Shown: in pieces, positions 7,139-54,442 of the stretch
How positions within the stretch are numbered: position 1 is the first letter of the stretch
Layout of the letters: the number at the start of each line of letters is the position of its first letter
Source: Eledone cirrhosa
Lineage: Eukaryota
NCBI GenBank assembly: GCA_964016885.1
Contig: OZ024761.1
Coordinates: 17,422,001 to 17,486,000 of the forward strand
Reading direction: 5' to 3'
Length of the DNA: 64,000 nt
The notes under the pieces: generated by a model
Database searches by the model: none
Seen by the model: only the letters and a program-made list of their open reading frames with translations
Told to the model about the DNA's origin: nothing
Made by a program: the position numbers and the translations under genes

Positions 7139-7945
7139 AAAGTTCTATTTAAAATTGTTGGGGTACAACAAGCAAATATTTTTATAACTGATATAAAGCA
7201 CTCGACAAGTATTTGGAGTAGATATACGATATTAATAAATGGAAACTATATTTATAAAACCATATTTATTTCATTATACATATTTCAGGGATACCAAATT
7301 AAAACATGGTATGCCTTCATCAGACAAAATACAATATATAACAGTTTTACAAATAAGCTTTGACGTACCCTATTAAAATACAACCATTATTTTTGGAAGC
7401 CATCTGGAAGCCACCTGGAAGCCATCTGGCTTCCAAAAATAATGGTTGCATTTTAAAAGGGTACGTCAAAGCTTATTTGTAAAACTGTTATATATTGTAT
7501 TTTGTCTGATGAAGGCATACCATGTTTTAATTTGGTATCCCTGAAATATGTATAATGAAATAAATATGGTTTTATAAATATAGTTTCCATTTATTAATAT
7601 CGTATATATATATATATATATACGATATATTAACAAATGGAAACTATATTTATAAAACCATATTTATTTCATTATACATATTTCAAATGGTCGCATTCTT
7701 TAAGGGTATGTCAATATTTATTTATAAAACTGATCTATATTATATTTTATCTGATGAAAGCACACCATAATTTAACTTGGTGTCCTTGAAATATGTATCA
7801 TGAAATAAATATGGTTTTATAAATATAGTTTCCATTTGTTAATATTTCGTATTTTTACTCCAATAATTTGTTGGGTGCTTTATATCAGTTATAAAAATAT
7901 TTTTGCTTGTTGTATCCCAACAATTTAAATAGAACTTCTACATTT
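7136..7945. mobile_element. Penelope-like terminal-repeat fragments in inverted arrangement with 3 hammerhead motifs
   Basis: Palindrome about 7225-7610; CTGATGA at 7317-7323(-), 7506(+), 7751(+), each followed by stem II, GAAA-TATGTA-TH and stem I; same family again at 53490-53740. Confidence 0.7.
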
Positions 7946-8059: not shown

Positions 8060-9041
8060 CTACAAGAAGCACTATCGGCCAATACATATATTTATAAATG
8101 TATATGTATATCGATCGACCTTACACACATGCACCTCTCTAAGACAATGCCACTGGACCGAGATCTTTGGCGCCACGGAGTAATACAGAAGACCTGCCCT
8201 CCCTATTTACAAAGCGGAACCTACAGTCAGTAGGCCCTTCTTAACCAAATATACACCCCAATCCACTACCCCTACCCTATCGTCCCACTCCCACCAACAC
8301 CACCCTCTCTCTATAAAGTTGGTACCACAACATCCAGTCCAAATTAATGAGATAATGAGATCGAGATCGAGATCATGTAGGTGTCACGAAAAAACACACA
8401 CAGTCCACGCTGTCATGTGGCCGTGTAGGTAACACGGTAAAAGGTTCCCAGTCCACACTGTAAATCTGGTTGGTGTTAGGAAGAGCATCCAGCCGTAGAA
8501 AACCTGCCAGATAGTCCTATACGAGCGAGACACGGTCACCCGACCAACCTTGCCTCAAGTGGGACAACTGCCATCTAACTCCTGTCCAACCCATGCTAGC
8601 GTGGAAGATAGACATTAAACGATGATGATGATGATGATATATATATATATATAAATATATATAAATATAAATTCATATTTATATATATCTCTCTCATAGG
8701 GTGTGGTAAAAACCAGGTAGACCCTAACCCACCAGAGTTCTCGGATCTGAAACGGCTGGAGCTCAGCCATCGGGGTCCTGAATCTTTTCATCATCATCAT
8801 CATTTATAATAAATGAATATATATATATATATGTATATATATATTTATATTAATAGTAATGTACTGGGTATTTGCTGGCCTTGTGCCAAATGTAGAAACA
8901 ATTAAGATTATATATATATATTTATATTAATATATATATATATAAATATATATTTATAAATATATATATATATATATATTTATAAATATATATTTATATA
9001 TATATATATATTAATATAAATATATATATATTTATATTAAT

Positions 9042-9078
<37 letters not shown>

Positions 9079-9097
9079 TATAAAATTATATTAATAA

Positions 9098-9140
<43 letters not shown>

Positions 9141-9240
9141 AATATAGACATAGAATATTCGAAAATATTCAGTATGTTTATAATAAACATTTTGAAGACC
9201 TAATCGCTATAGAATAGAATACGTCACGTATTACAATTAG

Positions 9241-9329
9241 ATTCTCGATAAAAGCAAGGGAAGTAATCTACGCGTTTCATTCTTGTTAGAAATCATCAGG
9301 ACTACATATCCAGTGCTTTTATCGAGAAT
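9241..9329 (-). ncRNA. Hammerhead ribozyme in the inverted copy (9130-9416) of the 310-bp unit
   Basis: Reverse complement of 9506-9594. Confidence 0.8.
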
Positions 9330-9414
9330 GACACAGCTAGAGACTTATAGAATACTTAGCTGTGTACAGGAACTGGTTTGAAAGAGCGGTTGCCGGTCCG
9401 GCAGAAATTAGAAA

Positions 9415-10976
9415 TTCCAATTTCTAATTTCTGCCGGACCGGCAACCGCTCTTTCAAACCAGTTCCTGTACACAGCTAAGTATTCTATAAGTCTCTAGCT
9501 GTGTCATTCTCGATAAAAGCACTGGATATGTAGTCCTGATGATTTCTAACAAGAATGAAACGCGTAGATTACTTCCCTTGCTTTTATCGAGAATCTAATT
9601 GTAATACGTGACGTATTCTATTCTATAGCGATTAGGTCTTCAAAATGTTTATTATAAACATACTGAATATTTTCGAATATTCTATGTCTATATTCACATA
9701 TATATCGCTATTTCAGAGCATTTATTCCAATTTCTAATTTCTGCCGGACCGGCAACCGCTCTTTCAAACCAGTTCCTGTACACAGCTAAGTATTCTATAA
9801 GTCTCTAGCTGTGTCATTCTCGATAAAAGCACTGGATATGTAGTCCTGATGATTTCTAACAAGAATGAAACGCGTAGATTACTTCCCTTGCTTTTATCGA
9901 GAATCTAATTGTAATACGTGACGTATTCTATTCTATAGCGATTAGGTCTTCAAAATGTTTATTATAAACATACTGAATATTTTCGAATATTCTATGTCTA
10001 TATTCACATATATATCGCTATTTCAGAGCATTTATTCCAATTTCTAATTTCTGCCGGACCGGCAACCGCTCTTTCAAACCAGTTCCTGTACACAGCTAAG
10101 TATTCTATAAGTCTCTAGCTGTGTCATTCTCGATAAAAGCACTGGATATGTAGTCCTGATGATTTCTAACAAGAATGAAACGCGTAGATTACTTCCCTTG
10201 CTTTTATCGAGAATCTAATTGTAATACGTGACGTATTCTATTCTATAGCGATTAGGTCTTCAAAATGTTTATTATAAACATACTGAATATTTTCGAATAT
10301 TCTATGTCTATATTCACATATATATCGCTATTTCAGAGCATTTATTCCAATTTCTAATTTCTGCCGGACCGGCAACCGCTCTTTCAAACCAGTTCCTGTA
10401 CACAGCTAAGTATTCTATAAGTCTCTAGCTGTGTCATTCTCGATAAAAGCACTGGATATGTAGTCCTGATGATTTCTAACAAGAATGAAACGCGTAGATT
10501 ACTTCCCTTGCTTTTATCGAGAATCTAATTGTAATACGTGACGTATTCTATTCTATAGCGATTAGGTCTTCAAAATGTTTATTATAAACATACTGAATAT
10601 TTTCGAATATTCTATGTCTATATTCACATATATATCGCTATTTCAGAGCATTTATTCCAATTTCTAATTTCTGCCGGACCGGCAACCGCTCTTTCAAACC
10701 AGTTCCTGTACACAGCTAAGTATTCTATAAGTCTCTAGCTGTGTCATTCTCGATAAAAGCACTGGATATGTAGTCCTGATGATTTCTAACAAGAATGAAA
10801 CGCGTAGATTACTTCCCTTGCTTTTATCGAGAATCTAATTGTAATACGTGACGTATTCTATTCTATAGCGATTAGGTCTTCAAAATGTTTATTATAAACA
10901 TACTGAATATTTTCGAATATTCTATGTCTATATTCACATATATATCGCTATTTCAGAGCATTTATTCCAATTTCTA
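9415..10976 (+). mobile_element. Tandem array of 5 x 310-bp units, each with a hammerhead ribozyme (non-LTR retrozyme / Penelope pLTR-like)
   Basis: Period 310 (TTTATTCCAATTTCTA at 9721, 10031, 10341, 10651, 10961); no differences seen between units; flanked by (TA)n. Confidence 0.85.
9506..9594 (+). ncRNA. Type I hammerhead ribozyme (repeated at +310, +620, +930, +1240)
   Basis: Stem I GTAGTC/GATTAC extended by a 16-bp helix ATTCTCGATAAAAGCA/TGCTTTTATCGAGAAT; CTGATGA at 9536; stem II TTCT/AGAA; GAAA at 9557; palindromic stem III ACGCGT; GUA triplet, predicted cleavage after 9566. Confidence 0.85.
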
Positions 10977-11429
10977 TATATATATATTTATTGATATATG
11001 TTTGTATGTATATATATATATATTTATTGATATATATGTTTGTATGTATATATATATGTCAATTTCATAACCTTTCACTCTCTCTCACTATATGTGTATA
11101 TATATATATATATACACATATAGTGAGAGAGAGTGAAAGGTTATGAAATTGACATTCACATAATAAGGTAATCAATTTCATCTAATTGATATCAAAGCGA
11201 CATCAATTCCTCGTCGTTTTTCAAACCACGTTTGCGTCTAAATTTTGCTCTAAGTAAAACACGATTTGTCTCCCTTTGGAAAAACATGATACGCCTGAAC
11301 AGTGAGCGAGTCTTGTTTGTTACTCAGGAGTTTCGCCTGTTTATCATAGAGTTATCCACATAAAAAAGTACTCTTTTCTCTCAGCCACATACATATGGCT
11401 GCAAACTCACGCTATAATAAATAGGGTTG

Positions 11430-11905: not shown

Positions 11906-12129
11906 TTTACAAATATATATATAGTAATAATAATTATGACGACTAAAATCCGAAGAGGCCTCGATAAGGATTATAGAAGATCCCGTAAAAAGGTGAAAGC
12001 AGCGATCTTTTGCTTAAACTTTAATCTGTACAAATAATCAATATATATATAAATATGAACTTATAAATAAATATATATTCAAAAATATATTGTAAGATGA
12101 AAAAAAAGACACCTTCGAAATTTACCAAG

Positions 12130-12202
12130 AGGTTCCAGCGAGTTTCGAACTCGCGACCTTCTGCGTGTGAAGCAGACGTGATAACCACTACACCATGGAA
12201 CC
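12130..12202 (-). tRNA. tRNA-Val (anticodon CAC)
   Basis: Acceptor GGTTCCA/TGGAACC; anticodon arm TCTGC-TTCACAC-GCAGA; T arm GCGAG-TTCGAAA-CTCGC; A/B boxes present; poly-T Pol III terminator at about 12107-12100. Confidence 0.95.
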
Positions 12203-15305: not shown

Positions 15306-15518
15306 TGCATGTAGTTGTGTGTATGTGTTGTTCCCAACACTCAACTTCCTCCATGGTTTTTCATGTAGCTGTGTATTCTGATTCCAACACCAACTTCTTC
15401 CCAGCCTTTCCTGAAGTGTGTGTGATGTTCCCAACACCCAACTTCTCTGATTCTGACACCAAGTTCTTCCTGTAATTCCTGTGTGTCTATCTGTAGACAT
15501 AGCAGTAAATTCTTCCAT

Positions 15519-15599
15519 TCATTCTATCTTGCTATTCTCAATCTGTTTCGTGCTAGGAATGTAGACTTTGAAGGAGAAGTTTGAACGTGAAAAGGAACC
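15519..15599 (-). CDS. POLE2: POLE2 exon 15, terminal ([26 protein letters not shown])
   Basis: CAG acceptor, TGA at 15521-15519; matches GSF.RS.FSFKV..PS...E.SK. Confidence 0.93.
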   Translation of the reverse strand, partial: GSFSRSNFSFKVYIPSTKQIENSKIE

Positions 15600-18500
15600 C
15601 TGAAAATAATGAATTTTAAAAAAAGATTTTTTAATCATTAACATTTAAAAAAAGATTTTTTAATCATTAACATTTAAAAAAAATTTTTTTATATCATTAA
15701 CATTTAAAACAAAAATTTTTTATATCATTAACATTTAAAAAAAAAAAATTTTTTAAATCATTAATATTTTAAAAAAAACATTTTTAAATCATTAACCCTT
15801 TCGATATCAAACTGCCAAAAACCCCACTCCTGGTTTTGTGATACAAAAAGTTATTTCAAAGTGTTTATATTTATCTAAAAAAAAAACCTCCATCCTTTGT
15901 TAAGTTACGTTACTAACACTAGTGTAACCCTTTAACATTTACATTACTCTATATATACTAATGTATTTTTGTGGTAAAGGCTTTATCTTACATAATTATC
16001 TCACATAAAACTGAATCTACGAGAGTAAGGATAAAAGGCAAAGCTAACCTTGGCAGGATTTGAATTCAGAATGTAACTGTGTGCTGCAAAGCATATTGTC
16101 TGCCGCTCTACCAATTTGGCCAATCCACTGCCATAATGTAATAACAATTGTTTCTATTTTAGGCACAAGGCCAGCAATTATCCAGTACATTACTGGTACT
16201 TTATTTTATCAACCCCGTAAGGATGAAAGGCAAAGTTGGTTTCTGATTTAAGCACAAGGCCAACAGTTTGAGGGAGGAGAAAGTAGATTAAATTGACCCC
16301 AGTGTGTTACTGGTACTTTATTTTATCAACGCTGTAAGGATAAAAAGCAAAGCTAACCTTGGTAGGATTTGAACTCAAAACGTAAGGGAACATAACAATA
16401 TGCTGCAAAACATAGTGTCCGACGCTCCACCGATTCTGCCAATCCACCGCTCTTGTGATGGTAAAGATAAAAAAAAAAAGATATGTCTTTGTTGAAGTTA
16501 CTTACAGGGTTTGTGATGATGCAGTCGAGAGAATTCACTGTGAAGCTGTCATATTTACCGGCACAGACAAGTAAATCTGGTAAGGGGTAGAGTTGCAAGC
16601 CACAGTCGTAAGCCCAATATACAGGACACACATGCAGTGGAAGTGGACAGAGATGACCTTGGGATATTACTGTCTTCGCAAACTGGAAAAGAAAGAAAAA
16701 AAATATATATATACATATATAAATCAGGATGCATTCAGTTTGAAACTGGTTAGACCAGTAGTAGAGTATGGTTATATTATAAAGAGTCGGAACCCGATGG
16801 CTGAGCTCTTGCTCTTCCAACAGCTAGTTCCAGACTGCACAGCACCCCTCCACTCTTTTCGTCATTTGCTCTGTGAATCTCAGTGATTTCAGATCAGTGT
16901 TCACCACCTCTGCCCAGGGCTTCCTTCCACTGTCTTTAAATTATATGGTAAATAAGAAGGTTGACGGGCCCCTGTTTTTAGACAGCTGTGAAATCCTTAC
17001 AAGATGTCAAGAGTTAAAAGAAAGACTTACATGAGAAGGGACATCCCCAGAGGTTGGGAACCGGATACAACTCCGGCACAGCTTGGTGACAATGTCTTCA
17101 CGGAAGACAACAATCTCCTGGGTACAGTACTGGATCCGGCAAGGATTGCTGGTGAATATGGAGTGAGGTATCTTCTTACGGAAATATTCTGTGATACAGT
17201 TAGGAATGGCAGGCCTGCAGAATAAGAAATATCCAAGAAATAATTTTTTTATATTAACAAAAAATAGCAGTGCCCCAGCATGGCCTCAACTTGTTGGCTA
17301 GAACATGTAATATAGTAAAACAAAACGAATGTATAAATAATATGATAAACAAGTATATAATATGGTATATTTCTATTGCTATCTTACTAAACCCCCCAAA
17401 TTCTTAATTATTTTCAAAATCATTTGAAAAAAAATTGTTGTATAGCACCAGGTTAGCTTTAATCATTGTTATGACTAGGGCCAGACTTTCACCACTGAGA
17501 CCTAAGCTATATGAAATTTGAGGCCCTACTCTAAAAATATTTAAAATAACTATACATGATTATTATTTTTTATATTAATGTTAATGATAATGAATGCAAC
17601 TTGCCCACACTGTAAAGTGGTCCTGTAGGTGTCACGACAAAAAGCACCCAGCACACACTGTAAGTGTGGTTGGTGTTAGGAAGGGCATCCAGCTGTAGAA
17701 ACCAAGAAAAAAACCAATCCTGTATGAGTAAGTCATGGTCATCGGACTTGGCTTATCTCACAATGGGGCAACTCGTCTAACCCAAGCTAGTGTGGAAAAA
17801 GAACGTTAAACAATAATGATATATATATATGTGTATATATGTATTTAAAGAATAAAAACTAATGATAAAATAAGAAAATATATTCTAAAAAATGAGGCCC
17901 CTCCTGAGGGTGTGTGACCCAAGGTTATAGCTAAGCCCAGCCAGCACTGGTTACAACTCACATCCATGTAGGATTAGCTGGCCTTCTACAAGCTTTCTTG
18001 ATAGGCCCTGCAAAATGAGGTGTCTTACTCAAGAACACAGCATGTAGACCTGTTCAAGAATCAAACCCATACCCTTGATATCATCAGTTCAACACCCTAA
18101 CAGTTAAGCTACTCAACATAAGATTAAATGTAAGGTTTGGTTATAAAATGATGAAAGTGCAGTGTGTGATACTTACCGTGGGAGAATGTTTGCAGGCCCA
18201 GGATCCAAGGGACCAGGGACAAATATGAACCTGCAACTGTCTATAAGGTTCTGATATTTACAGATAATATCACACAGCTCATTAAATGACTCTGAAACAA
18301 CAAAACAAAACATTATTAGGTTAGCTTTACGGTCTGAGTTCAAATCCTGCCAAGGTTAACTTTGCCTTTCATCCTTACGGGGTCGATAAAATAAAGTACC
18401 AGTAATACACTGGGATAATTGCTGCCCTTTGTGCCTAAAGTAGAAACAATTATTAGGTTAGCTGTACCTTTCATCCTTATGTATTGGCCTTTGCCTTTCC

Positions 18501-18631
18501 CAATATCATATATAGTGTATATATGTCACTGGTGCCAAGCAGTATCAGCCTTTATCATGCCTTGGATAGCATTATATTTAGTGAATAAATCAATTGTGAC
18601 AATACCTGTGCCCTTGACATCGGATATAATG

Positions 18632-18663
<32 letters not shown>

Positions 18664-19190
18664 TAAAAAATAATGAATAAAACAATGAAACAGTTCCTTA
18701 TATTAAACAAAAAAAGTTCATTATTTAACGATCGTTTCTAGGATATATATGTGTTAGAATTGGCATGCATATTCAACAGATCTATGTACAAAATTATACA
18801 AAATTATACAAACTATCAAAATTAAATATACATACCAAACACATATATATGCCGTCTTCAGAAATATATATGTGTTTGGTATGTATATTTAATTTTGATA
18901 GTTTGTATAATTTTGTATAATTTTGTACATAGATCTGTTGAATATGCATGCCAATTCTAACACATATATATCCTAGAAACGATCGTTAAATAATGAACTT
19001 TTTTTGTTTAATATAAGGAACTGTTTCATTGTTTTATTCATTATTTTTTAATATTTTATCTTGACTCTGTATTCCGTTTATCTTTCACCGAAAGTGATTT
19101 TTCATTGCATCTCTTCTTTCCATGATATCCGGACTACATTGAGTTCTTCATACGGATTGGACACTACCGTAAACTCTTGGTAGATTTATC

Positions 19191-19229
<39 letters not shown>

Positions 19230-21710
19230 AACCATGTTCATGAGTGATGAAAGTCGGGAGGCTGAATTAAGTGCAAGAATTGCAGGAACTGGTGCAGTGT
19301 TTCGTCAGCTTCAGCATTTCGTAATAAGAAGGGAAGTAGATGTAAAAGCCAAACTCGCTATCTTTAATCCGCTATTGATGCCAACCCTTAACTCTGGTCA
19401 TGAGTCTTGAGTAATGACCGGAAGAATATCAAAATGGGGTTCCTCCGAAGAGTCTTTACTTTAGAGTAACATTACTTGATAATGTGTGTAGCTTAGAGAT
19501 CAGAGAGCCATTCCATGTAGAGCTGCTACTTCTCCGAATTGAGATATCACAGCTCCAATGCTATGGGCATGTACTTAGAATGTCTCGCTTGGGGAGGGAT
19601 CCAGCTGGTTCAGTTGGAAACGGTTGCTTCTGATAGGGCCCGCTGAAAGGAGTGTTTGAAGACTCGGCCCCAAAGACCCTCTCAGGAATAAGTGGGTGTA
19701 AAAGAAGGCTAATGCTAAGCTGTATCTGTCTAGAAATTTTCACTGAGATGACAGCCCCCTTACCTCGAAGTATTTTGATGTGGTTAGTCTGGTGACAGAG
19801 AGACGTGAAGTTACCACAGAAGATAAAAGCTACAGGCGGGTGTTCAGAGTAGCCACTGAATAAAATTTTCAACTTGTCTATCACCTGCAAAAATAAAATA
19901 ATAGATAAAGTGGTATAGTTAATACGAAGTATTGTGAGATATGTAATAAATGACTAAGTTTTTCAGAAAGCCAGTACAATGTGGTACAAATATATAATAT
20001 TGAATCAATGAAATTTTGATATTATTTATTTTGAGAACAATACCTTAACATAAATATGAGCAGCTGATTTGGCTGGTTTGAACAGAAAGAAGTGAGGGAA
20101 TTCTGGCTGGATATGGCCAGTTTAAATGCTAAAGGACTTAATACAAACCGAATAAACAAATAATTATAAAAAAAAAAAACCCCAACAGCTTTATATGGAA
20201 ACCTTTAGATTAACGGTTACCGAAATAATTAGTCGTAGCACTAAGACAAAAAACCAGTAATTTTGGGTGGAAGGTAAAGACGACTTCATCATACCCATTA
20301 CTTGACTGGTACTTAATTTTTGTTGACCTTGGTGGGATTTGAACTGAGAGAGTAAAGAGCCAGAACAAATACACTGTTAAGGCATTTGTCTGATGCTATA
20401 CCGTCTCTGCCATTAGCTCAAAGGTGTCAGATAGTGGCTAGGGATCAGCTCAGAGATGATAGTGTCCAGAAGAAAGGAGGAGAGGTGATGGTTGAGAGGG
20501 GGATGGGTGAGAAAGAGAGAGGGGTGAAAAAATGAGACAAGGTGGGGTGAGAGACACATAGAGAGACTGAGAGGCAGAAAGAGAAAGAAAGAAGAGGGAG
20601 GGAGTTAAACTTACTTTCGGCTCATCTAACCAAACATCGGAAAGAAGGACAAACATGGACTCCTGGTTCTCAACTTCAAGGTGCCGCAGTTTGTCAGAGG
20701 CCTTAGCACAGGTTTTGAGAGGGCCTCCAAAGAAATTGATGTTGCCAAAATAGGACCTGCAAGACAAAGAAGTCAGAATATGAAGAAATGAATGATGAGA
20801 GGGTGGTGGGGGTTGTTGTTGTGTGTGTGGTGGGGTGTTGAATACATTGCAATACTCCCAGGTTATAATAGTTGTTTAACCCTGGTCAACTCTATGGTCA
20901 AAGACACTCCAGATATCACAGCTTAACCCTGGGTCAACCCTATGGTCAGAGACACTCCAGACATGACAGCTTAACCCTGGGTCAACCCTATGGTCAAAGA
21001 CACTCCAGATATCACAGCTTAACCCTGGGTCAACCCTATGGTCAGACACTCCAGACATGACAGCTTAACCCTGGGTCAACCCTATGGTCAAAGACACTCC
21101 AGACATGACAGCTTAACCTTGGGTCAAATCTAAGGTCAGAGACATTAGGGTTGACCCAGGGTTAAGCTGTCATTTCTGGAGTGTCTTTCGGGTTGATAAC
21201 GGTCTTATTTACATATATACAGGTAGTTAATGACCACAGGTGGGACTGGACAACAGCAGCTATACATATATGGATATAGTTGACCAGAGGCAGACGTGTA
21301 ACAGAGAGCAGCTATATATACATATACAATAGTTGACCACAGGTGGGAGTGTAAGACAGCAGCTATATATATACAGGTAATAGTTGAATACAGGTAATTG
21401 TTGACTAATGATAGAGGTGTAACAGAATGAAGCTATATATATATATATATATACAGGTAGTTAATGATCAGACACAGGTGAAAATGTAGTGTAATCTAGT
21501 GAAGAGGAATGAGATTTACCTGGTGACAGAGGCCGGTTCAGGAGGAGGGAAACCAAATGCTGTCACATGGAAGATGCTGTCCTCATACCAACCCTCGGCC
21601 AGGACAAAACAGTTCTCAGTGAAGAGTCCAGTGTGGAAACTGTAGCACAGCTGGGTCAAGGAATCATATACAGATAGTGGATCGGATTCATAGTTGATTG
21701 TAAAAACTAT

Positions 21711-21741
<31 letters not shown>

Positions 21742-24613
21742 TGTAAAGTGGTCATGTAGGAAACACGGTAAAAAGGCTCCCAGTCCACACTGTAAAAGTG
21801 GTTGGTGTTAGGAAGGGCATCCAGCCAGAGACACTTCCGTACGAGCGAGACATGGTCTCCCAACCAATCCTGCATCAAATGGAACAATACCGTCTAACCC
21901 ATGCTAGCGTGGAAGATGGACGTTAAACGATGATGATGATGTGTGGGTATAAGATAGTTTTTATATCACATACATATATCATCATCATCATCGTTTAACG
22001 TCTATCTTCCACTATATATATATAATAATTGTTTCTACTTTAGGCACAAGGCCAGCAATTACCCAGTGCATTACTGGTACTTTATTTTATCGACCCCGTA
22101 AGGATGAAAGGCAAAGTCAACCTCGGCGGGATTTGAACTCAGATCATAAAGGTACGTAACTATGCTGGAAAGCATGGCGTCCGGCCCTCTACCGATACTG
22201 CCAATCCACCACCCATATATATATAATAATAATAATGATAATAATTGTTTCTGGTGGACTGATTGCTTTTTTTGCCAGTACAACTATTTTACAGCATGGA
22301 GTGGGTGCTTTTTGTCATGGCACCATCAAAGTCTGATCCCATTTTTTGAAATATTAGCTAATCTGTTACTCCATATATATTAACTCTTAACACCTTGAAA
22401 ATAATTTTGTAGAAAATTTCTAAAAACGGGGTCTGTTAATTCAAATGTTTATAGTATCTTTACTAGTAGGCAGATTGTTGTGATAATTTGCAGTATTATA
22501 GTAAAGACTGATATTTAATATGATGTTGTCATAGATCTGTTTTGTACTTTTTAAGAATGTCTTGTTAATGCAGTTTCATATGGTTTATTAATTCAAATGT
22601 TTATAGTATCTATACTGGTGGACAGATCATTGTGAAAATTCAAAGTATTAGAATAGTAAAGATTTTAATTTTCAATGTGATGCAGTGAAATTGCTGTTTT
22701 ATAGTTCCCAAGAATGTTTTGCTAATGTAGTTTCACATGGATAGGGTATTAAAAGTTAATTCATTCAAATACTTTGTTTCTGAATTTGTTTAGCAAGATT
22801 CTTTATCTGAAATCGTGTGTTGAAACCGATATTGTTATACTTTGGGAGGGTCATGTTGCCACTAAGAAACACACGCACCAGTTGCTTTCCCTTCAATTTA
22901 TTATATATTTATAAATTTATAAATTTACAAATTTATAAATTTCTGTTTGGTTGGTTGGTTCCACAACCAGATAGTTGTTTATAATGACCCTCTCATTCAA
23001 ATACATTGTATTTTAGTAGAAGTATGGTTACAGAAGGGTTTAAACAACAGAGATCAAACAACAAAAGGATATTGCTCCAGTGAGATCAATTAGAACAGAA
23101 CCACTTGGATCTTCAAGGTACCACTTTCCCTGAAATATTAAAAAGAAACTTTGTGTTGACTAAATTCTTTCATTAGAAATATGGTAATGAAAGGGTAAAT
23201 GAAAAAGTTATATTACTAAATTCTTTCATTAGAATTCTGGTAACGAAAGGGTTAATGAGAAAATTAGTTCTATAACTAAATTTTTGGTTAGAAATATGGT
23301 AATGAAAGGGTTAGTGAGAAAGGAAGAAAGATAGTTATAATACTAAAATCTTTTGTTAGAAATATGATAACAAAAGGGTTAATGAGAAAGTTAGTTCTAT
23401 AACTAAATTTTTTGGTTAGAAATATGGTAATGAAAGGGTTAATGAGAAAGATAGTTATAATATTAAAATCTTTTGTTAGAAATATGATAACAAAAGAGTT
23501 AATAAATCACAATAACCAATCACTTTCTAAATTTTCTAACTTTAGCTACAGATGTAGTAAATAAAATATATTATATACCTCTTTCAACTGTGTTAACATT
23601 CCAAGGACAATAAGTTCTCCCAGTTTAGTTGTTGTACCCAACAGGTGTTCTATAGGTTTCAGCTGGACAGGAAAGATAATTAAATAATTAATTAGTTAGT
23701 TTATTCACAATTCATTTTTCACAGCTAATATTAGAAAGTAGAGTGGTTTAGAGACGGTATGGCAGAGATATGAAGACAGTTGTGACTGGACAACTACTGG
23801 ACAGAGAAAGGAGACAGCTGCTACTGGACAGAGAGATGGAGATGGCTGTGACTAAACAGAGAGGCAGACATACTGACTAATGGACAGAGAGACAAAGATG
23901 GCGATCGGAGAGAGACAGAGATGGCAGTGAGAGAGACAGAGATGGCGAATGGAGAGAGACAGAGATGGCGATGAGAGAGACAGAGATGGCGAATGGAGAG
24001 AGACAGAGATGGTGAATGGAGAGAGACAGAGATGGCGATGAGAGAGACAGAGATGGCGAATGGAGAGAGACAGAGATGGCGATGAGAGAGACAGAGATGG
24101 CGATGAGAGAGACAGAGATGGTGAATGGAGAGAGACAGAGATGGCGAATGGAGAGAGACAGAGATGGCGAATGGAGAGAGACAGAGATGGCGAATGGAGA
24201 GAGACAGAGATGGCGATGAGAGAGAGACAGACAACACAGAGACAGAGACAGAGATGGCAGTGATGAGAGAGAGAGACAGAGATGGCAGTGATGAGAGAGA
24301 GAGACAGAGATGGCAGTGATGAGAGAGAGAGACAGAGATGGCAGTGATCAGAGAAATACAGAGATGGCAGTGATGGCAATGATCAGAGAAAGACAGAGAT
24401 TAGTGCCGGACAGAGAGATGACAAGATAAAATAGAGACAATAACCATACCTGAAATTTTTGGGAATTTTCCTCCATGTTTCCAATAGCTGGCGGGGTAAA
24501 TAAATGATGGCGCATGGTTCTCTGAGGAATATAGGGAAAATAATGATGTAATTATATATATATAGTGTGGTGGTGGTGATAGTGGTGTAAATATATGGTG
24601 ATGGTGGTAGTAA

Positions 24614-24644
<31 letters not shown>

Positions 24645-26150
24645 AACGTTAGAATATGTGTAATAAGGCCAAGACAATGCAGATATGGACATAGAAAAAA
24701 GAATGCAATAGTGAAAGATATTGATGAGAATTCGTCTTTCACCTTGAATTTATTTAAATGTCCTTAATTTTCGAGATAATATCTCTTCTTCGGAGGGAAG
24801 TAAAAGTCTCAGACGCTGGTCTGAGACTTTTACTTCCCTCCGAAGAAGAGATATTATCTCGAAAATTAAGGACATTTAAATAAATTCAAGGTGAAAGACG
24901 ACTTCTCATCAATATCTTTCACTATTGCATTCTTTTTTCTATGTCCATATCTGCATTGTCTTGGCCTTATTACACATATTCTAACGTTTATACCTCATTA
25001 CACAATGCTTCAAGTGAACTATAACCTCCTCCCATATATATATATATATATATACACACACATATACAATGGACTTCGTGAGTTTCAAGTGTCTGCAACT
25101 TATACAAAAGCCAATATACACACACACAGTGGAGGTGTGTGGCCTAGTGGTTAGTGTGTGGGACTTACAACTATAATGCTGTGGGTTCAATTCTTGGATT
25201 GGGTTGTGTATTGTATTCATGAGCAAAACACTCCATTTCACATTACACCAGAACACTCAGCTGAAAATTAGTACCAGTAATAGCTCAGGGTTTAACCCTG
25301 TGATGAACTGGTGTCTTGCCCATGGAAAAGTCTTGTACTCTGTCCTAGGATAGCACTGTCCTGATGAGCCTCGGGCTCAAGACAGACTTTAGACTTTAGA
25401 TACACACACACATACATGCCTCAGTTCGAAACAGGTAAATGGTGAAATCTAAAATGAAGGACTTACCTGATATAGTAACATATAGCGATCCTTAAACAAC
25501 TTCCAGAGATCATTTGGTTGACCATGAAGTAGAGGGGCAGACAGGTCAAGCTCATTGTTTCTGTTCACAAAATATAAATCATATAAATATATGATGGTGG
25601 TAGTAAATCATCATCATCATCATCATCATCATCGTTTAACGTCTATCTTCCATGCTAGCATGGGTTAGACGGGAGTTGTCCCACATGAGGCAAGATTGGT
25701 CGGGTGACCGTGTCTCGCTCGTATAGGACTGTTGTATCTGGCAGGTTTTCTACGGCTGGATGCCCTTCCTAACACCAACCACGTTTACAGTGTGGACTGG
25801 GAGGTTTTTACCGTGTTACCTACACGACCACATTACAGCGTGGACTGTGTGTTCTTTTTGTCGTGACACCTACATGACCTCATTAGATTGAACTGGATGT
25901 TGTGGTACCAACATAACTTTATAGAGAAAGGGGTGGTGTTGGCGGGAGTGGAAGGATGGAGTAGGGGTAGTGAGTTGGGTTGGAAGGGCCTACTGACTGT
26001 AGGTTTTGCTTTGTAGATAGGGAAGGCAGGTTTTCTGTATTACTGCATGGTGCCAGAGATCTCGATCCAATGACATTGTCTTAGAGAGGTGCAAGTGTGC
26101 AAGGTCTACACAAATACACATTATACACATACATACATACATATGAAAAT

Positions 26151-26181
<31 letters not shown>

Positions 26182-29100
26182 CTTACACACACACACACAT
26201 ATATATTATACTTACACACACATACATACCTATATATATATACACATATATAATATACAAAGATATATATACAATCATTGTTTTTATTATCTGGCTCTTT
26301 ACATTCTATGTTCAAATCCCGTCGAGGTCAACTTTGCCTTTCATCCTTCTGGGGTTGACAAAATAAAATAACAGTCAAGTACTGGGATTGATTTAACTCT
26401 TCAGCATTTCCATTACTCTATATCTACTATTATATTTTCATGGCAAAGGCTTTATCTTCCATAATATCGAATCTATGAGATTTTGATAATAATACCTGAA
26501 CTTCCAATCAGTACGAGCAGCCGGTTATGGCCAGTTTGAACAGAAAGAGGTGAGAAAATTCTGGCTGGATACGACTGATTTAAATGCTAAAGGGTTAATC
26601 AAATTTTCCCTTCCTTCCTCTAAAAAATTTGCTTAGATTAGAAATCAATGTTAGAGGTAAGAATGTTTGGAAACCGCGGAGTGGGGAGACCCAAGATGAC
26701 CTGGGATGAGGTGATAAAAGCCGAGCTTACCCAATTACACCTCTCAAAGACAATGACACACAACCGTGACTTCAGGCGTCACGCAGTAATACAGAGTACC
26801 CGACCTCCCATGGGTACATGCTGAAGCATATAAACAATATGCCCCCACACCCCCCACCGCAAGGTGGTCGTGGAGGTGCCACGGCAAAAAAGCACCCAGC
26901 CCACACTGTAAAGTGGACGTGTAGGCGCCACGGAAAAGCACCCAGCACTCACTGTAAATGAGGTTGGTGTTAGGAAGGGCATCCAGCTGTAGAAATCAAG
27001 CCAGATCAGTTCCTGTATGAGCAAGGCATGGTCAGCCGACCAGACACTGCCCACAACAGGACAACCCGTCTAACCCATGCTAGCGTGGAAGAACGGACGT
27101 AAAACGGTGATGATGATGAATATATATATATATATATATATATAGGAACGAGTAGGACCCTAAGTATTGAGTACTTTGGTGCGTTATGGTCCATCTGATT
27201 CCTTACCACATTTCTTTCGTTATATATATATATTTATTAAAATAACAGATTAAAGTTTAAGCAAAGAATCGCTGCTTTCACCCTTAACGGGATCTTCTGA
27301 AACTAAAAATATTAATAAATGGTATACGATGCTGATGATAGCTAATAAGCTTGAAACTAGTACATCGTTCCTGTGTCAGTGTTGAACAAAAGGGCGACGA
27401 TGGTGTTAGGAAGGGCATCCAGCTGTAGAAATCAAGCCAGAATCAGTTCCTGTATGAGCAAGGCATGGTCAGCCGACCAGACACTGCCCACAACAGGACA
27501 ACCCGTCTAACCCATGCTAGCGTGGAAGAACGGACGTAAAACGGTGATGATGATGATGATGATGAGGTAAGATCTATCCCACACTCTCATCCACCCAACT
27601 ACCTTCATTAGAGAATAGAAACTGGATTAATATTTAATTAAAAGATAATTTACTTACAAAATGAACTTTTTCCGTTCATCGACATAAGTGTACCTCGGCA
27701 CAGAGAAGGTGTCAATCACACTAAAGGCATTCTCTCTGGAAACAAACAAAAAAAAGAGAGACATTAACCATTTTGAGACTAAACTACCATAATACAATCA
27801 TGAATACAAGCGGCCGAAATGAGATTCCCCCGAAGGGTCTTTGAAATAACTGTTTCTACTTTAGGCACAAGGCCAGCAATTGCTCAGTGCATTACTGGTA
27901 CTTTATTTTATCGACCCCGTAAGGATGAAAGGCAAAGTCAACCTCGGCGGGATTTGAACTCAGATCATAAAGGGACGCAACTATGCTGGAAAGCATGGCG
28001 CGCGACCCTCCACCGATACTGCCAATCCACCGCCAGATATAGATTTAATGGCTGCCCCTTAGTTATACCATAATACAATCATGAATACAAGCGGCCGAAA
28101 TGAGATTCCCCCGAAGGGTCTTTGAAATAACTGTTTCTACTTTAGGCACAAGGCCAGCAATTGCTCAGTGCATTACTGGTACTTTATTTTATCGACCCCG
28201 TAAGGATGAAAGGCAAAGTTAACCTCGGCGGGATTTGAACTCAGATCGTAAAGGGACGTAACTATGCTGGAAAGCATGGTGTCTGACCCTTTACCGATAC
28301 TGCCAATCCATTTGAAATAACATTACATGATAAAGTGCGTAACTCGTAGATCAGAGAGTCACTCCAGGTAGAGCCGCTACTTCTCCGAATTGAGAGATCA
28401 CAGCTCTGATACTATGGATATGTGGTTAGATTGTCTCAAGAAATAATTGCTGAACAGATTTTACAGGCAAAACCAACAAGGTAGGAGACCCCAGAGGTAG
28501 ACCCACCCCAAGCAGGGTGGTTGGATAACATCCATGAGCTTGGCTGGTCACATTTGGGGATCCAGCTGGATCAGTTGGAGATAGTTGCTTCTGACATGAC
28601 CTGTTGGCGGGAGTGTTTTGGGACTCTGCCACCATGACCCTCTCAGAAATAAGTGGGCGAAGAAGAAGAACCATTTTGATACTTAACTACTAGAAACCAT
28701 CCCTGGTTCTATGCTGCAAAATTTTTATTCATCTAAAAGTCTTACATTTTATGCAACAATCTATTTTTAGGTTATTTCCAAACACCAACTTGATAATGAG
28801 AAAGTTAGTGTTTATATATAAATTTGAGCAACTTCCGTCCGTCACAAAATAATTGTTTCTACTTTAGGCACAAGGCCAGCAATTACCCAGTGCATTACTG
28901 GTACTTTATTTTATCGACCCCGTAAGGATGAAAGGCAAAGTCAACCTTACGGGGTCGATAAAATAAAGTACCAGTAATGCACTGGGTAATTGCTGGGTAA
29001 CGTCCGTCACAAAATAATATACTCATACAAGCATCAGCATGTTGAAAAAAACTTCTAGTATTATTAAATTCCTCCTCTAGCAGCGACAAAGTCTGGGGTC

Positions 29101-31956
29101 GTTAATTTTAACGAGGAGTTAGACCAACTGAATACACATCATAGAAATCAACAGAAGAAAAAGAGGAGGGTGGTGATGATGAGGAGGCAGAAGTGAATCC
29201 ATAAAATTAACACTGAACTACTTACCCATCATTCTCATCACCAGCAACACATTCTTGTACTGCAGTCAGACAGATTGTTTTGTCTATCAAAGATGACGAC
29301 ACTAGAAACAAGAAACAAAGACAAAAAAGTACTGAAGTGGAGCTACTGATCTCCCAGGCAGGTCAGTAATCTGTGTCTCACTTTAGGTATGGTCTTACAT
29401 TCCACCAAGTGCTCAGGAAAAGTGTCATGCCTTTGACACAACTGAGGTCCTCCCAACCCTTTGTTTGACAAGATTTCTAAACAAATATATATATGTTCGT
29501 ACAAACACATGTGCTGTATTATTATCCTTGATTCATGGAACAGAGGAGAGTGCTTTCCTTGCAGGAAGTGTTGTCCATTTGCCTTCCTCTCTCTCTCTAT
29601 ATATATATCTACCTGGAGTTGCAACAGGTAGATACTATCAGCAATGGAAAAACCAATGGAACCATTCTTACCTTAGTCAGATTCAGATTTAAGAATCAGC
29701 TCCTTCCTTCCGCCAGGAGTTGTGACTGACAGATACTATCAGCAATAGAAAGACCAATGGAAACATTGTTTCCTTGGTCCAATCTGACAAGTTCTACCCC
29801 CACTTGGCAAGCAAACAAAGTCTGGGATCTTGTTGATCAAACTCTATATCCATATATCTGGGTCTAGATTTAACTGTGTATCCCTTAAAGTCTTTTAATT
29901 TTCAGAATGATTACACAAAAAGGGGGTTTAATTTCGTTATCACCAGCAGCATTTCCTCACAGAAATTACATAAGAATTTCCTGGTGTCCTTCCTATTTAA
30001 AGATTTCACTGCTATTTCTAACAAGTCGAATGACAGTTGTCTTTTATTTATATGCCTGAGGGGATAGTAGTTAATGACCACCCCCCATTAAACCCCAGGG
30101 AGGGGGGAAAAACAACAAGCAATCAAATAAACTTACAGGGTTGTTTCATTATATTTTCCAAGATCTTGTCAATCAATTGCATTCTTTTACTGGCCCTTGT
30201 GGCCTCCAATTGTCCCAAGAGAAACTTGCTGGCTTCACTGAAAGATAAGACAAAAACAGGATAACAATATTGAAATGCTGCAAAACTCTCTTTTATTGAT
30301 GGATCCGTCGTTGTTGTCAACGACGAGCATTCAATCAATCTCAGGCATGTCAACTCTCCCCGTCTGACAAGGAGATCTCCCATCCATTTTGGGGTGGGTG
30401 AAGGATGTCTTCTCTTGTGAAAATAGGTATAGATTTCATTATGTTTCTATTTTGCCTAATTTCTCAACATTTTGGGGCATTTTTTTTCATGGTACTACTC
30501 GTTTGGGTTTTTAAAGGTTGGCAGGTCAACATTCCATCTACTGAACACCTTACATTTCATTAGAGCAATCTCATTCTTTCTTTAAAAATTGAGAGATCAG
30601 AGATTCGCTACATCTCCGATACTACAGACATGTAGTTAAAATGTCTCAGGAAAGGATCACTGGACAGATTTTAAGGGCAAAACCTACTGGCAAGAGACCC
30701 TGGGGAAGACCCACCTGGAGTATGATAGTTGGATAACCACATCAATGAGGTTGGCTGGTTTAGCTTGGGAATCCAGCCGGATCAGTTGACGACGGTTGCT
30801 TGACAGGACCTGCTGGAAGGAGTGTTTGAGGACTCTGCTCCCACGAACCTCCCTGGAAAAAGTGGGCGGCGAAGAAGGCTCCCGATTGTCATTGTTTGGG
30901 GCCTTTCCAGAGATCCTAGTCACCAAGTACGCACGAAGCAACGAGAGAACATCTTTATTGAAGGCTTTTAACATCGTCCCTAGATGCCTTGCCACATTTG
31001 AACGCTCTGGTGACCTCAACTTCCGAGAGATTAGTCTTCGTCCCCAAATGCAGCACATGTACATCACAAGATGTCTTTGTGACTGGATTTAGGGGATCAG
31101 CAAAGTATTCTCTACGAGGACTCGCGAGGAAGCACCTCTCTTCAGAGATATGAACAAGAAAAATATATTGCACTCTCCATATAACGTCATAAACGAGCAA
31201 TGGGCCTGAGACATATCCTTGCAAACGGATGCACAAAGTTTGCGTATTACGAGACCCTAAAGAGGGTTCAGAAAGGAGCAAGCATTAACAATTGGCAACA
31301 AACCCCTCTCCTTTTTTTTTATTTCTAAAAATGTATTGTTGTCCTGCATCAAAATTATGGCGTAAAAGTTCGGTAAATTCGTGTTTAAGGTTCGTTAAAA
31401 AAAAAAATTAAGAGAGTTACTTCCCCTTTACCCTTGTTTTAGTTAAGGAACAATTGAATCAACCGCGGTAATGTTTTTCTCTGTCGTCTGTAGTCCCCTT
31501 TTCGAAAATTAGTCGAAATTTGTTCTCAAATGCTTCTTTATTAATGTAATATGTTTATAGTACAGCTTTAAATATTCTACGATTAAGGTAAGTGATAAAA
31601 AAAAAATTAATTAAAATAAATTTTTTATTTTTTTATTTTTATATTTCATCGTCATAATCGTAATCTACATCAAAAAAATATATCTCTGTAAAATTCGTTA
31701 AAGAATATCGATTATTAAGAAAGTTATAAAAGAAAAAAAAACAAAGTTATGTCTATGTTTGATCGTTAAGGACTTGTTTAGAAACTAAAAAAAAAACATG
31801 AACAACGCCAGAATGGAAGGAATTAGATAATTACAAAAGAGAATACGACATAATACAATATAGATCTTAAAATATGAAACGATAAAATTACCTGCGAAGT
31901 GTCAAGCCATGTAACTTGAAAGTACTCGTTAGATCAGACTTTAGTTTCGATGCCAT
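15519..31956 (-). CDS. POLE2: DNA polymerase epsilon subunit 2 (DPB2/POLE2), complete 15-exon gene, 1569 nt CDS = 522 aa + stop
   Basis: Exons 31892-31956, 30137-30237, 29226-29301, 27658-27735, 25467-25560, 24450-24521, 23579-23662, 23073-23129, 21520-21641, 20615-20756, 19764-19884, 18177-18291, 17031-17214, 16506-16682, 15519-15599 join in frame. Peptides such as [56 protein letters not shown] and [21 protein letters not shown] are colinear with vertebrate POLE2 as recalled. Confidence 0.97.
16506..16682 (-). CDS. POLE2: POLE2 exon 14 ([15 protein letters not shown]...CIITNP)
   Basis: CAG/GTAAG; contained in supplied ORF 16353-16820. Confidence 0.95.
17031..17214 (-). CDS. POLE2: POLE2 exon 13 (PAIPNCITE...[18 protein letters not shown]...)
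   Basis: CAG/GTAAG, phase 2->0. Confidence 0.95.
18177..18291 (-). CDS. POLE2: POLE2 exon 12 ([11 protein letters not shown]...[17 protein letters not shown])
   Basis: CAG/GTAAG; conserved FVPGP.DPG. Confidence 0.95.
19235..19705 (+). mobile_element. Old RTE-type LINE 3' fragment (related pieces at 28320-28670 and 30590-30880)
   Basis: ELSARIA...AKLAIFN.LLMPTL..GHES and [12 protein letters not shown]-like remnants. Confidence 0.65.
19764..19884 (-). CDS. POLE2: POLE2 exon 11 ([26 protein letters not shown]...)
   Basis: CAG/GTAAG, phase 0->1. Confidence 0.95.
20615..20756 (-). CDS. POLE2: POLE2 exon 10 ([13 protein letters not shown]...[10 protein letters not shown])
   Basis: CAG/GTAAG; conserved motifs. 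Confidence 0.95.
20875..21185. repeat. 48-bp minisatellite ending in an inverted copy
   Basis: GCTTAACCCTGGGTCAACCCTATGGTCAAAGACACTCCAGATATCACA x about 5.5, then GGGTTGACCCAGGGTTAAGCTGTCA. Confidence 0.9.
21520..21641 (-). CDS. POLE2: POLE2 exon 9 ([40 protein letters not shown])
   Basis: AC acceptor, GTAAAT donor; highly conserved peptide. Confidence 0.95.
21642..23072 (-). other. U12-type (minor spliceosome) AT-AC intron, POLE2 intron 8, 1431 nt
   Basis: 5' splice site ATATCCTTT; branch site TTCCTTGAC (21663-21655); terminal AC at 21643-21642; phase 0 join DLTGA|SFHTGL restores the conserved protein. Confidence 0.93.
23073..23129 (-). CDS. POLE2: POLE2 exon 8 ([19 protein letters not shown])
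   Basis: CAG acceptor; followed by the non-canonical donor ATATCCTTTT. Confidence 0.92.
23579..23662 (-). CDS. POLE2: POLE2 exon 7 ([28 protein letters not shown])
   Basis: CAG/GTATA, phase 0->0. Confidence 0.93.
23885..24400. repeat. GA-rich minisatellite in POLE2 intron 6
   Basis: GAGAGACAGAGATGGCGAATG variants. Confidence 0.9.
24450..24521 (-). CDS. POLE2: POLE2 exon 6 ([24 protein letters not shown])
   Basis: CAG/GTATG; conserved RT.RH.LFTPP. Confidence 0.93.
25467..25560 (-). CDS. POLE2: POLE2 exon 5 ([13 protein letters not shown]...[11 protein letters not shown])
   Basis: CAG/GTAAG, phase 2->0. Confidence 0.92.
26668..27120 (+). mobile_element. Short 5'-truncated copy of the 49347-50890 RTE LINE
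   Basis: Near-identical to about 50430-50880. Confidence 0.85.
27326..27368 (+). ncRNA. Minimal hammerhead ribozyme motif in POLE2 intron 4 (antisense)
   Basis: ACGATG-CTGATGA-tAGCT(AATA)AGCTt-GAAA-CTAG-TA-CATCGT. Confidence 0.75.
27658..27735 (-). CDS. POLE2: POLE2 exon 4 ([25 protein letters not shown])
   Basis: CAG/GTAAG, phase 2->2; conserved PR.Y..ERKKF. Confidence 0.93.
29226..29301 (-). CDS. POLE2: POLE2 exon 3 ([25 protein letters not shown])
   Basis: TAG/GTAAG, phase 1->2; matches LSSNMIE..AVQEC. Confidence 0.92.
30137..30237 (-). CDS. POLE2: POLE2 exon 2 ([13 protein letters not shown]...[10 protein letters not shown])
   Basis: CAG/GTAAG boundaries, phase 2->1. Confidence 0.9.
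31892..31956 (-). CDS. POLE2: POLE2 exon 1 ([21 protein letters not shown])
   Basis: ATG at 31956, donor GTAATT; resembles the POLE2 N-terminal FKLRGLLLR motif. Confidence 0.9.
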
Positions 31957-34608: not shown

Positions 34609-34676
34609 AATAAACACCTGATGATGTCACCAGGATCCTATGGAACCTGGTCATTGAAATGTGCATAGTGTTTGTT
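34609..34676 (+). ncRNA. Hammerhead motif
   Basis: AATAAACAC-CTGATGA-...ACCAGG..CCTGGT...-GAAA-TGTGCA-TA-GTGTTTGTT. Confidence 0.7.
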
Positions 34677-35989
34677 CTAATAAATCTTTGAAGGAATTTC
34701 ACCAGTCCGGCCTCCTGTCATTTTACTCAATTATATACATCATCTCAGGGTATGTCATGTATCATTATATTTTATCTGATGAGGACGTACTGTTGTACAT
34801 CCAAAATATGTATAATAAAATGTAATTGATCAAAAGAACATCTATTTTATTAATATTTGTATTTTAATATATATATATATATCATCTATCACTCGATTTG
34901 TTGTCTACTACCATATCCACACACACACACATATTTGTCATTATCATCATTTAATGTCCATTTTTCCCAGCTAGCTAGAAATAAAATATGAATATATCAC
35001 TGAAGCAAGGGCAATAAATCTATACTGAGTAGATATTGTTTGTTTGAATTGATCCCAGTACATGACTGGTACGTTAATTACCAACGTCTTTGATATATTT
35101 TTTTTTCCCCTTTGTCATGCTGGGTAACCCACATTGTAAGAGAAGTAGTTCCATTCAACACTAACCAATCCATTTCCTATGGGTGGTCAGATTTCTTGAC
35201 AAGTTCATTACATCTAGCCTTCAACATGATAAGGGTAAAAAAAAATGTAAACTCCGAAGAAAAAACAAAATTTACAGCCTACACATATGTAGGTTTTAGC
35301 TCAGAACAAGAATTGATTGTATCTCATAGGAGGTTTCTCAGGTGTTTTAAACATTTCTATATTTACCATTATATTTTCTTGGTAAAGGCTTTATCTCACG
35401 TATCAAATCTATGAGATTTTATTATTTATTTTGAGAACAATACCTTAATACCAGTATGAGTGGCTAGTTACAGCCAGTTTGAACTGAAAGAGGTGAGAGA
35501 ATTCTGGGCAGATATGGCCGCTTTAAATGCTAACGGGTTAATGATCGTGGCCTCAATCCTATCATGTTGTTACAGCTCACACTTATGTCAGTTTAGCTGG
35601 GATTCAAATTGGTTGTATCTCATACATTTCTCAGGTGTTTTAATGATAGGGACCCCAGTCCTATCATGTTTGTTACAGCTCACACCTATGTAAGTTTAGC
35701 CAGGAACACAAATTGGTTGTATCTGATAGGAACCTCCTAACATGTTTAGCTGGCCTGTTATGGGGTTGTATCTCATAGGAGGTTTCTCAGATATTTTAAC
35801 GTTAGTGGCCTCAGTCCTATTATGTTGTTATAGCTCACATCTATAACAGATTTAGCTGGTCTGTTACAAGGTTACATATTATAGAAGGGTTTTTTCCTGT
35901 TTTATTGATAGGGGTCTCAGTCCTATCACACACACACACACACGCACATATGTGGTTACAGCTCACACCGATGCAGGTTATTACTGCCC

Positions 35990-37190: not shown

Positions 37191-37276
37191 CCATGACTTG
37201 AGAAGAATACCTTTACAATGTCCACAGATCCAGGTGAGTTGTATGGTGTTCGAAATTACCTCTTCTGCCTTCACTA

Positions 37277-50300: not shown

Positions 50301-50886
50301 TTGAGAGAGAGACTGAGCATAAGAAGAATCAAATGCTGTGTGCAGGAGAGGCGGCTGCGCTGGTATGGACATGTGATACGTATGAAGGATGATAGCTGCA
50401 TAAAAAGGTGCAGAGCACTAGAAGTTGATGGAAACCGCGGAGTGGGGAGACCCAAGATGACCTGGGATGAGGTGATAAAAGCCGACCTTACCCAATTACA
50501 CCTCTCAAAGACAATGACACACGACTGTGACTTCTGGCGTCACGCAGTAATACAGAGTACCTGACCTCCCATGGGTACAAGCTGAAGCATATAGACAATA
50601 TGCCCCCACTTCCCCCACCGCAAGGTGGTCGTGGAGGTGCCACGGCAAAAAAGCACCCAGCCCACACTGTAAAGTGAACGTGTAGGCGCCACGAAAAAGC
50701 ACCCAGCACTCACTATAAATGATGTTGGTGTTAGAAAGGGCATCCAGCTGTAGAAATCAAGCCAAATCAGTTCCTGTATGAGCAAGGCATGGTCAGCCGA
50801 CCAGACACTGCCCACAACAGGACAACCCGTCTAACCCATGCTAGCGTGGAAGAACGGACGTAAAACGGTGATGATGATGATGATGA

Positions 50887-54100: not shown

Positions 54101-54134
<34 letters not shown>

Positions 54135-54384: not shown

Positions 54385-54442
<58 letters not shown>

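Follow-up and report, generated by a model that had tools for sequence, protein, structure and literature searches.

A probable non-LTR retrozyme in a tandem 310-bp repeat, with a hammerhead bearing a U10.1-U11.1 mismatch

A tandem array of 310-bp units within the 64-kb stretch of DNA analyzed here (the window) is very likely a non-autonomous non-LTR retrozyme, an array written by a Penelope-like element (PLE) whose units each carry a hammerhead ribozyme that would cleave as a dimer and in which a U10.1-U11.1 mismatch at the start of stem II is merely tolerated. The hammerhead of the first direct unit, at position 9536, is a real motif and is probably functional and dimer-dependent, with a predicted cleavage site 3' of position 9566.

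Results

All elements of the invariant core (C3-U4-G5-A6-N7-G8-A9, G12-A13-A14, A15.1, U16.1 and H17) are present at 9536, and stems I and II are both paired with the ends of the motif opening in stem I, which makes it a type I hammerhead (Table 1). In the minimum free energy (MFE) fold, stem I comprises 6 bp (9530-9535 with 9567-9572) and continues past an unpaired U at 9573 through 3 bp (9524-9526 with 9574-9576) to a distal helix of 16 bp (9506-9521 with 9579-9594); stem II has four Watson-Crick pairs beyond U10.1 and U11.1. The usual tertiary contact may be supplied by loop 2, which is rich in A, and the unpaired U that follows stem I. The first-pass annotation had claimed a hammerhead here with a palindromic ACGCGT stem III and U-U as the first pair of stem II, and both claims hold: the core and stems I-III could be located, the U-U departs from the usual, though not invariant, G-C, and a hammerhead descriptor matched 15 times in the window, compared with 0.01 times on average and at most once in 200 block shuffles. 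At the gathering threshold Rfam found no hammerhead and only one tRNA in the whole window, and Rfam HH9 scored the 9536 motif at 19.2 bits (E=0.052), under its gathering score of 52. The register at 9536 is backed by a copy from a sequencing run (X10) that carries at 9543 an A, a Watson-Crick partner for 9556. A register with an extra U between positions 9 and 10.1, as in the minimal hammerheads of PLEs, was ruled out at 9536 because it leaves stem II unpaired, as was the extra-nucleotide register at 27332 and 52213; for the motif at 34618 the choice between this register and the canonical one is ambiguous.

Table 1. Positions of the 310-bp array, its hammerhead and the other hammerheads of the window.
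Feature	Position	Strand	Details
Core of the first direct-copy type I hammerhead	9536-9566	+	CTGATGA 9536-9542, GAA 9557-9559, A17 9566
Stem II of the 9536 hammerhead	9543-9556	+	U10.1 (9543) against U11.1 (9556)
Stem III of the 9536 hammerhead, ACGCGT	9560-9565	+	palindromic
Extended stem I of the 9536 hammerhead	9506-9594	+	MFE fold
Five tandem 310-bp units, 34% GC	9414-10976	+	TRF period 310, 5.0 copies, 100% matches
Inverted, truncated 287-bp exact unit copy, 5' end of array	9130-9416	-	carries the sixth hammerhead
(TA)n microsatellite, left of insertion	8909-9137		
TA-rich microsatellite, right of insertion	10975-11057		
Single type I hammerhead, U-U, stem III ACTAGT, geometry as at 9536	27326-27368	+	between POLE2 exons, antisense to POLE2
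Single hammerhead, U-U, long interrupted stem II, 8-nt stem III	34609-34668	+	
Hammerhead, U-U, six further stem II pairs, 3-bp stem I	52210-52254	+	stem III ACGATCGT
Inverted copy of the 52213 hammerhead, U-U kept	52132-52170	-	palindrome broken (ACAATCGT)
Comparison family, A10.1-U11.1, stem III ATATGTAT	7140-7943		hammerheads 7323 (-), 7506 (+), 7751 (+)
Relatives of the 7506 family	53674; 56523; 33130	-; +; +	A-U; G-U; G-C

The direct hammerheads of the array start at 9536, 9846, 10156, 10466 and 10776 in identical units, and a sixth, whose minus-strand start is 9299, lies inside the inverted copy; none of the six has lost any part of its core. A T at unit position 9664 is shared by the five direct copies and the inverted copy, where all three unit-bearing sequencing runs have A, a pattern expected of a single template and a single insertion. 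With five units of 310 bp, 34% GC and a type I hammerhead in each, the array has the size and composition of non-LTR retrozymes, which are described as tandem repeats with a monomer of ~300 bp and GC under 45% (PMC7229834) and are recognized by tandem units of 150-450 bp, each with a type I hammerhead, and GC below 45-50% (PMC7229834; 10.64898/2026.07.22.740005). PLE insertions are marked by a 5'-truncated copy in inverted orientation and by microsatellite targets (PMC8557442), and the array has both. It contains no stop-free frame of 100 aa, and a 59-aa fragment from it, the one fragment scanned, had no Pfam match. Among 209 reading-frame fragments of the window (at least 55 aa, with low-complexity fragments and three tandem arrays excluded) there was neither a GIY-YIG domain nor a PLE reverse transcriptase, and the single RVT_1 match in the window (49275-50561) is 38 kb from the array; with no adjoining reverse transcriptase (RT) or GIY-YIG reading frame, the array is not an autonomous Penelope-like element, and its PLE partner is one that we infer. 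The circular 310-nt monomer is strongly structured in computed folds (MFE -67.6, z=-4.3 against 100 shuffles).

The array lies ~4.5 kb past the stop codon of POLE2. The window is animal DNA rich in microsatellites; it holds the spliced minus-strand exons of POLE2 (DNA polymerase epsilon subunit 2; about 15500-30450), exons of a leucine-rich-repeat gene (53271-54978, minus strand), a tRNA (12130-12202, minus strand), a piece of a LINE reverse transcriptase that contains a PHD-like insert (49275-50561, plus strand) and a 418-aa open frame of Thr/Ala-rich, mucin-like repeats (35956-37212, minus strand) within an array based on trinucleotides. Matches to miRNAs at 9355-9480 were rejected, as they correspond to the inverted-repeat junction. 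A transcript of 9130-9700 that includes the inverted copy would fold into a perfect hairpin of 287 bp, in which the first direct hammerhead is sequestered.

The folds computed for the 9536 motif differ with the length of transcript. The A15.1-U16.1 pair is not predicted to form in cis in the monomer (P=0.00), and the ACGCGT homo-duplex is worth -7.5 kcal/mol. An unconstrained 420-nt two-copy transcript is predicted to fold into a double hammerhead (-109.7 against -105.4 kcal/mol, P=0.66) with swapped stem I strands and a 6-bp stem III, in which stem II with U10.1 reaches P=0.42 only. In the MFE fold of the full five-copy transcript, every one of the five motifs takes up an inactive local structure in which A15.1 pairs with U10.1. 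As the two-copy and five-copy folds differ and the energy margin is small, the double hammerhead hinges on the stretch folded, in a folding model that is without tertiary contacts. Published work describes tandem copies as switching cleavage on, with multimers cleaving and monomers not (Cervera 2014, PMC4209133; Weinberg 2019; PMC6765202, PMC6155905). The proposal that the motif depends on dimers through its stem III palindrome thus gains support from the absent cis pair and from the published model (Cervera 2014; Weinberg 2019). Its corollary, that tandem copies are on and solitary ones quiet, agrees with that model, but quiet is only relative, for the axolotl monomers HHR_Amex1 and HHR_Amex2 were cleaved to 6% and 22%, respectively, in an hour (PMC7229834). 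None of the motifs cited alongside (27332, 34618, 52213) is tandem.

For comparison we scanned metagenomes, which gave at least 133 matches at 119 loci, a set dominated by a few sample series and no census. Among the matches listed, 24 of 133 lack stem II whichever register is used and serve as a control, 9 are in the canonical register and 100 are in the extra-nucleotide register, which is the right one for them; several of these mimic U-U by their end letters only. The search pattern left the two middle letters of stem III free, so that palindromicity stood outside it. Among the matches listed, the hexamer is nonetheless palindromic in 8 of 9 motifs of the canonical register and in 31 of the 39 distinct cores with an extra nucleotide, compared with 8 of the 24 matches that lack stem II, and this excess in hammerhead-like cores indicates, at the level of sequence, selection for stem III self-complementarity. 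The 310-bp unit has no relative among the 119 loci listed. In viral contigs the general pattern matched twice, in neither case with a convincing hammerhead, and the pattern of the 9536 family did not match.

Within the window, U-U occupies 10.1 and 11.1 in 9 of the 15 motifs and in four of seven types, the 9536 family counting as six copies; the remaining six motifs, which the first-pass annotation leaves out, have A-U (four), G-U (one) and G-C (one), and 11.1 is U in 14 of the 15. The X10 unit, 99% identical to that of the window and different at two places, has A10.1-U11.1; run X2 keeps U10.1, and the contig of run X20 has a hole from 9544 to 9591. Because a nearly identical unit has A-U and other motifs of the window have A-U, G-U or G-C, U10.1-U11.1 looks like a tolerated state rather than part of a design. 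Two unrelated metagenome loci, L057 and L087, combine U-U with ACGCGT, and four others (L007, L075, L083 and L100) combine G-C with 6-nt palindromes. The natural U10.1-U11.1 mismatch has been named before, with cleavage above that of any other mispair (Perreault 2011, PMC3088659), and U-U also lies at the base of helix II in axolotl HHR_Amex2, a hammerhead of about 60,000 copies that cleaves much better as a dimer and belongs to a retrozyme expressed as circular RNA (PMC7229834).

We regard as unlikely the alternative that the mismatch is a selected attenuator, weakening stem II of the monomer and joining the 1-bp stem III to deepen a monomer-off, dimer-on switch. The predicted probability of monomer stem II in the 9536 family is indeed 0.13 with U10.1 and 0.92 with the A of X10, but the low value is explained by pairing of UUUC with the catalytic GAAA; since this misfold is set by local sequence, the effect of U10.1 is not general, and at 27332, L057 and L087 it is impossible. 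These same three motifs, with covarying stems, repeat the combination of U-U, 6-nt palindrome and A17, and U-U spans four of the seven window types, a recurrence that shared descent explains equally well. Against attenuation stand also the A10.1 of the near-identical unit, the G-C that accompanies 6-nt palindromes at L007, L075, L083 and L100, and the axolotl monomers, of which the one with U-U was cleaved to 22% and the one without the mismatch to 6%, their stems III differing (PMC7229834).

In an alignment of window positions 9530-9572 and 27326-27368 with L057, L087, L007, L075, L083 and L100, A17 is found in all four U-U motifs and C17 in three of the four G-C motifs, which may reflect lineage or coupling; L073, L112 and L117, with stem I of 0-1 bp, were excluded, and stem I and II counts from this alignment are circular, as the motifs were selected on them. 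The U-U hammerhead with ACGCGT at L057:701-820 has (CCCTAA)n no more than about 70 nt downstream, where the contig ends; telomere-associated PLEs show a similar arrangement.

The U-U reported at 27332, 34618 and 52213 is present at all three. That these motifs are unrelated in sequence is true of their flanks, the 9536 and 27332 motifs aligning over only 34 nt of core (E=0.004). The two nevertheless have their geometry and loop letters in common, and the 34618 motif has the stem II geometry of the 7506 (A-U) family; given these family likenesses, separate origins of U-U cannot be claimed. Each motif was also said to have its own palindromic stem III, and the four stems III do differ, but that of 34618, ATGTGCAT, needs two central G-U pairs and is no Watson-Crick palindrome. 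Likewise, the 6-nt stems III of 9536 and 27332 are too short to fold in cis as proposed, but the 8-nt ones of 34618 and 52213 can close in cis with 2 bp and a 4-nt loop. The motifs at 27332 and 34618 are single and that at 52213 has an opposite-strand copy only, with no same-strand twin near any of the three.

A second group of hammerheads (7140-7943, 33130, 53484-53752, 56523 and 34776) has a long stem II with a pyrimidine-C mismatch at the fourth pair, 8-nt stems III that are self-complementary via tandem G-U pairs, and A-U, G-U or G-C at 10.1/11.1; its copy at 34776 has lost G12 and is on the strand of the 34618 motif, which it follows by 158 nt. Two decayed hammerhead-like stretches, 11975-12029 (plus strand) and 27245-27298 (minus strand), are 91% identical and contain AGAAGA, a short stem II between U and U, and GAAA, with no clear stem III; the second is close upstream of the 27332 motif, on the other strand.

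Unit sequence also occurs in sequencing runs under many organism codes: 20 runs (17 organism codes, 16 studies) hold 64-89% of 28 sampled unit words (9414-9723). Four runs out of 24 were aligned, and three of them (X10, X2 and X20) contain the unit at 99% identity or more, with 1-2 differences, across the tandem or circular junction; the fourth, X21, consists of raw reads and gave none. Closed 340-nt contigs of X10 and X2, and one of X20 that crosses the junction, fit tandem DNA as well as circular RNA, and no RNA runs are among the listed runs bearing unit words.

Discussion

We propose that in a multimeric transcript of the array neighbouring copies would exchange their stem I strands, with the two ACGCGT hexamers joining to make a stem III of 6 bp, that cleavage after A17 would free 310-nt monomers, and that a host ligase would circularise them; the monomer, unable to form stem III, would be mostly inactive. 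A Penelope-like element elsewhere in the genome would then reverse-transcribe one circular or multimeric RNA, so that the array was written in one event. Under this proposal U10.1-U11.1 would be a tolerated, probably slower first pair of stem II with no separate mechanism, and the palindrome would be kept for the self-pairing it allows, family specificity coming mainly from stem I.

It is improbable, by our estimate, that the array is instead catalytically dead or crippled by U-U together with the 1-bp stem III, the repeat having grown by duplication at the DNA level. The inactive folds of the five-copy MFE structure would suit such an origin, as would reports that PLE-type dimers cleave poorly in vitro (Cervera 2014, PMC4209133) and that eight of nine Xenopus retrozyme dimers showed no cleavage in vitro (10.64898/2026.07.22.740005). 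Against decay stand a core kept intact in all six copies, the unit with U10.1 that is also found in run X2, and U-U motifs with covarying stems elsewhere, and the inverted 5' copy points to a PLE-type insertion; the axolotl retrozyme with U-U, moreover, is expressed (PMC7229834).

We give very little credence to the first-pass annotation's idea that stem III palindromes are family-specific pairing codes, stopping cross-talk among co-resident retrozyme or PLE families. The four U-U motifs do have four different palindromes, whose mutual incompatibility is borne out by computation (homo-duplexes of -4.8 to -10.0 kcal/mol, hetero-duplexes of -3.2 to +1.0 kcal/mol), but those pairs are excluded by stem I already. 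In our tabulation of 10.1/11.1 and stem III, which covers the 64-kb window and one metagenome scan, the form AC-NN-GT admits four Watson-Crick hexamers only, and all recur across families: ACGCGT is common to 9536, L057, L087, L083 and the L012 group, ACTAGT to 27332, L075, L100 and L018, and both occur with U-U, G-C or extra-nucleotide stems II, while ACATGT is found in 25 of the 39 distinct extra-nucleotide cores among the matches listed. One family bears both ACATGT (at least six loci) and ACTAGT (at least three loci). The metagenome families come from different hosts, and palindrome sharing among them says nothing on co-resident families in one genome. Since the double hammerhead also swaps stem I strands, specificity would reside there: stem I of 9536 cross-pairs over 0-1 bp with the other eight motifs tested, and the predicted 9536 homodimer (-6.1 kcal/mol) is a full double hammerhead, whereas with L057, L087 and L083, which share the palindrome but differ in stem I, it gains about -1.8 kcal/mol with no stem I exchange and no double hammerhead. 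Pairing in cis within a tandem transcript would in any case make a code needless. Among the papers listed by literature searches on palindrome-coded specificity or heterodimers, U10.1/U11.1, cephalopod retrozymes and horizontal transfer, none concerned a pairing code, although Lunse 2017 may cover the subject.

The near-identity of the unit across organism codes would be unusual for distant species; retrozyme sequences are described as species-specific (PMC7229834). The 17 codes may represent close species, mixed samples, a shared contaminant or a food source; we hold it to be rather unlikely that the 310-nt retrozyme passes between animal species with hardly any change, as a circular RNA that is infectious or spreads horizontally and is written back into genomes. 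If it did, an animal retrozyme would behave like a transmissible RNA, and the U/A toggle at 10.1 among carriers would offer a natural pair for testing monomer-off, dimer-on tuning.

In one window of one animal genome U10.1-U11.1 is thus common, which matters for descriptors that reject a 10.1/11.1 mismatch and for Rfam, since none of the 15 motifs is caught by its models. As a reagent, the natural alternation of U and A at 10.1 between units otherwise 99% identical is convenient. We found no statement of the combination of U-U with a 6-nt palindrome in Cervera 2020, though the figures of that paper (4A and S4) and of Perreault 2011 (5, S6 and S8) may already show it; the legend of Fig. S8 in the latter lists palindromic stems III of several ribozymes (PMC3088659). 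The main text of an octopus repeat paper mentions neither hammerheads nor retrozymes (PMC13282606).

Dimer cleavage and U-U have both already been described for animal retrozymes, and the 310-bp repeat is a further example. A 2026 preprint derives such retrozymes from the pLTRs of PLEs (10.64898/2026.07.22.740005). As in newt satellite 2 and ASBVd, where two tandem motifs form an elongated helix III and cleave far better than the monomer (Forster 1988, cited in PMC6155905, PMC4209133 and PMC6765202), the tandem motifs of the 9536 array form an elongated helix III in the computed fold of two copies; the array differs from both in having U-U for the usual G-C and an inverted 5' copy. It resembles the minimal hammerheads of PLEs (PMC4209133; Lunse 2017 via PMC6765202) in its short palindromic stem III, its presumed dimer mechanism and its tandem and inverted insertion at (TA)n, but its 6-bp stem I, its 4-bp stem II without an extra nucleotide between 9 and 10.1, its want of G10.1-C11.1 and of an adjoining RT or GIY-YIG reading frame set it apart; the 52213, 34618 and 7506 motifs, with their long stem II, come closer to that type. 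With the variants of Perreault 2011 (PMC3088659) it has the same mismatch at the same positions in common. Another close likeness is to axolotl Rtz_353/HHR_Amex2 and Rtz_331/HHR_Amex1 (PMC7229834), tandem low-GC units of ~300 bp with one type I hammerhead each: the U-U at the base of helix II is that of HHR_Amex2, whose dimer-enhanced cleavage is an axolotl result, the 9536 motif being known from its sequence, and stem III, a lone pair closing a palindromic tetraloop, is that of HHR_Amex1. Unlike either axolotl retrozyme, the 9536 motif unites an Amex1-type stem III with an Amex2-type stem II, in another sequence and another host.
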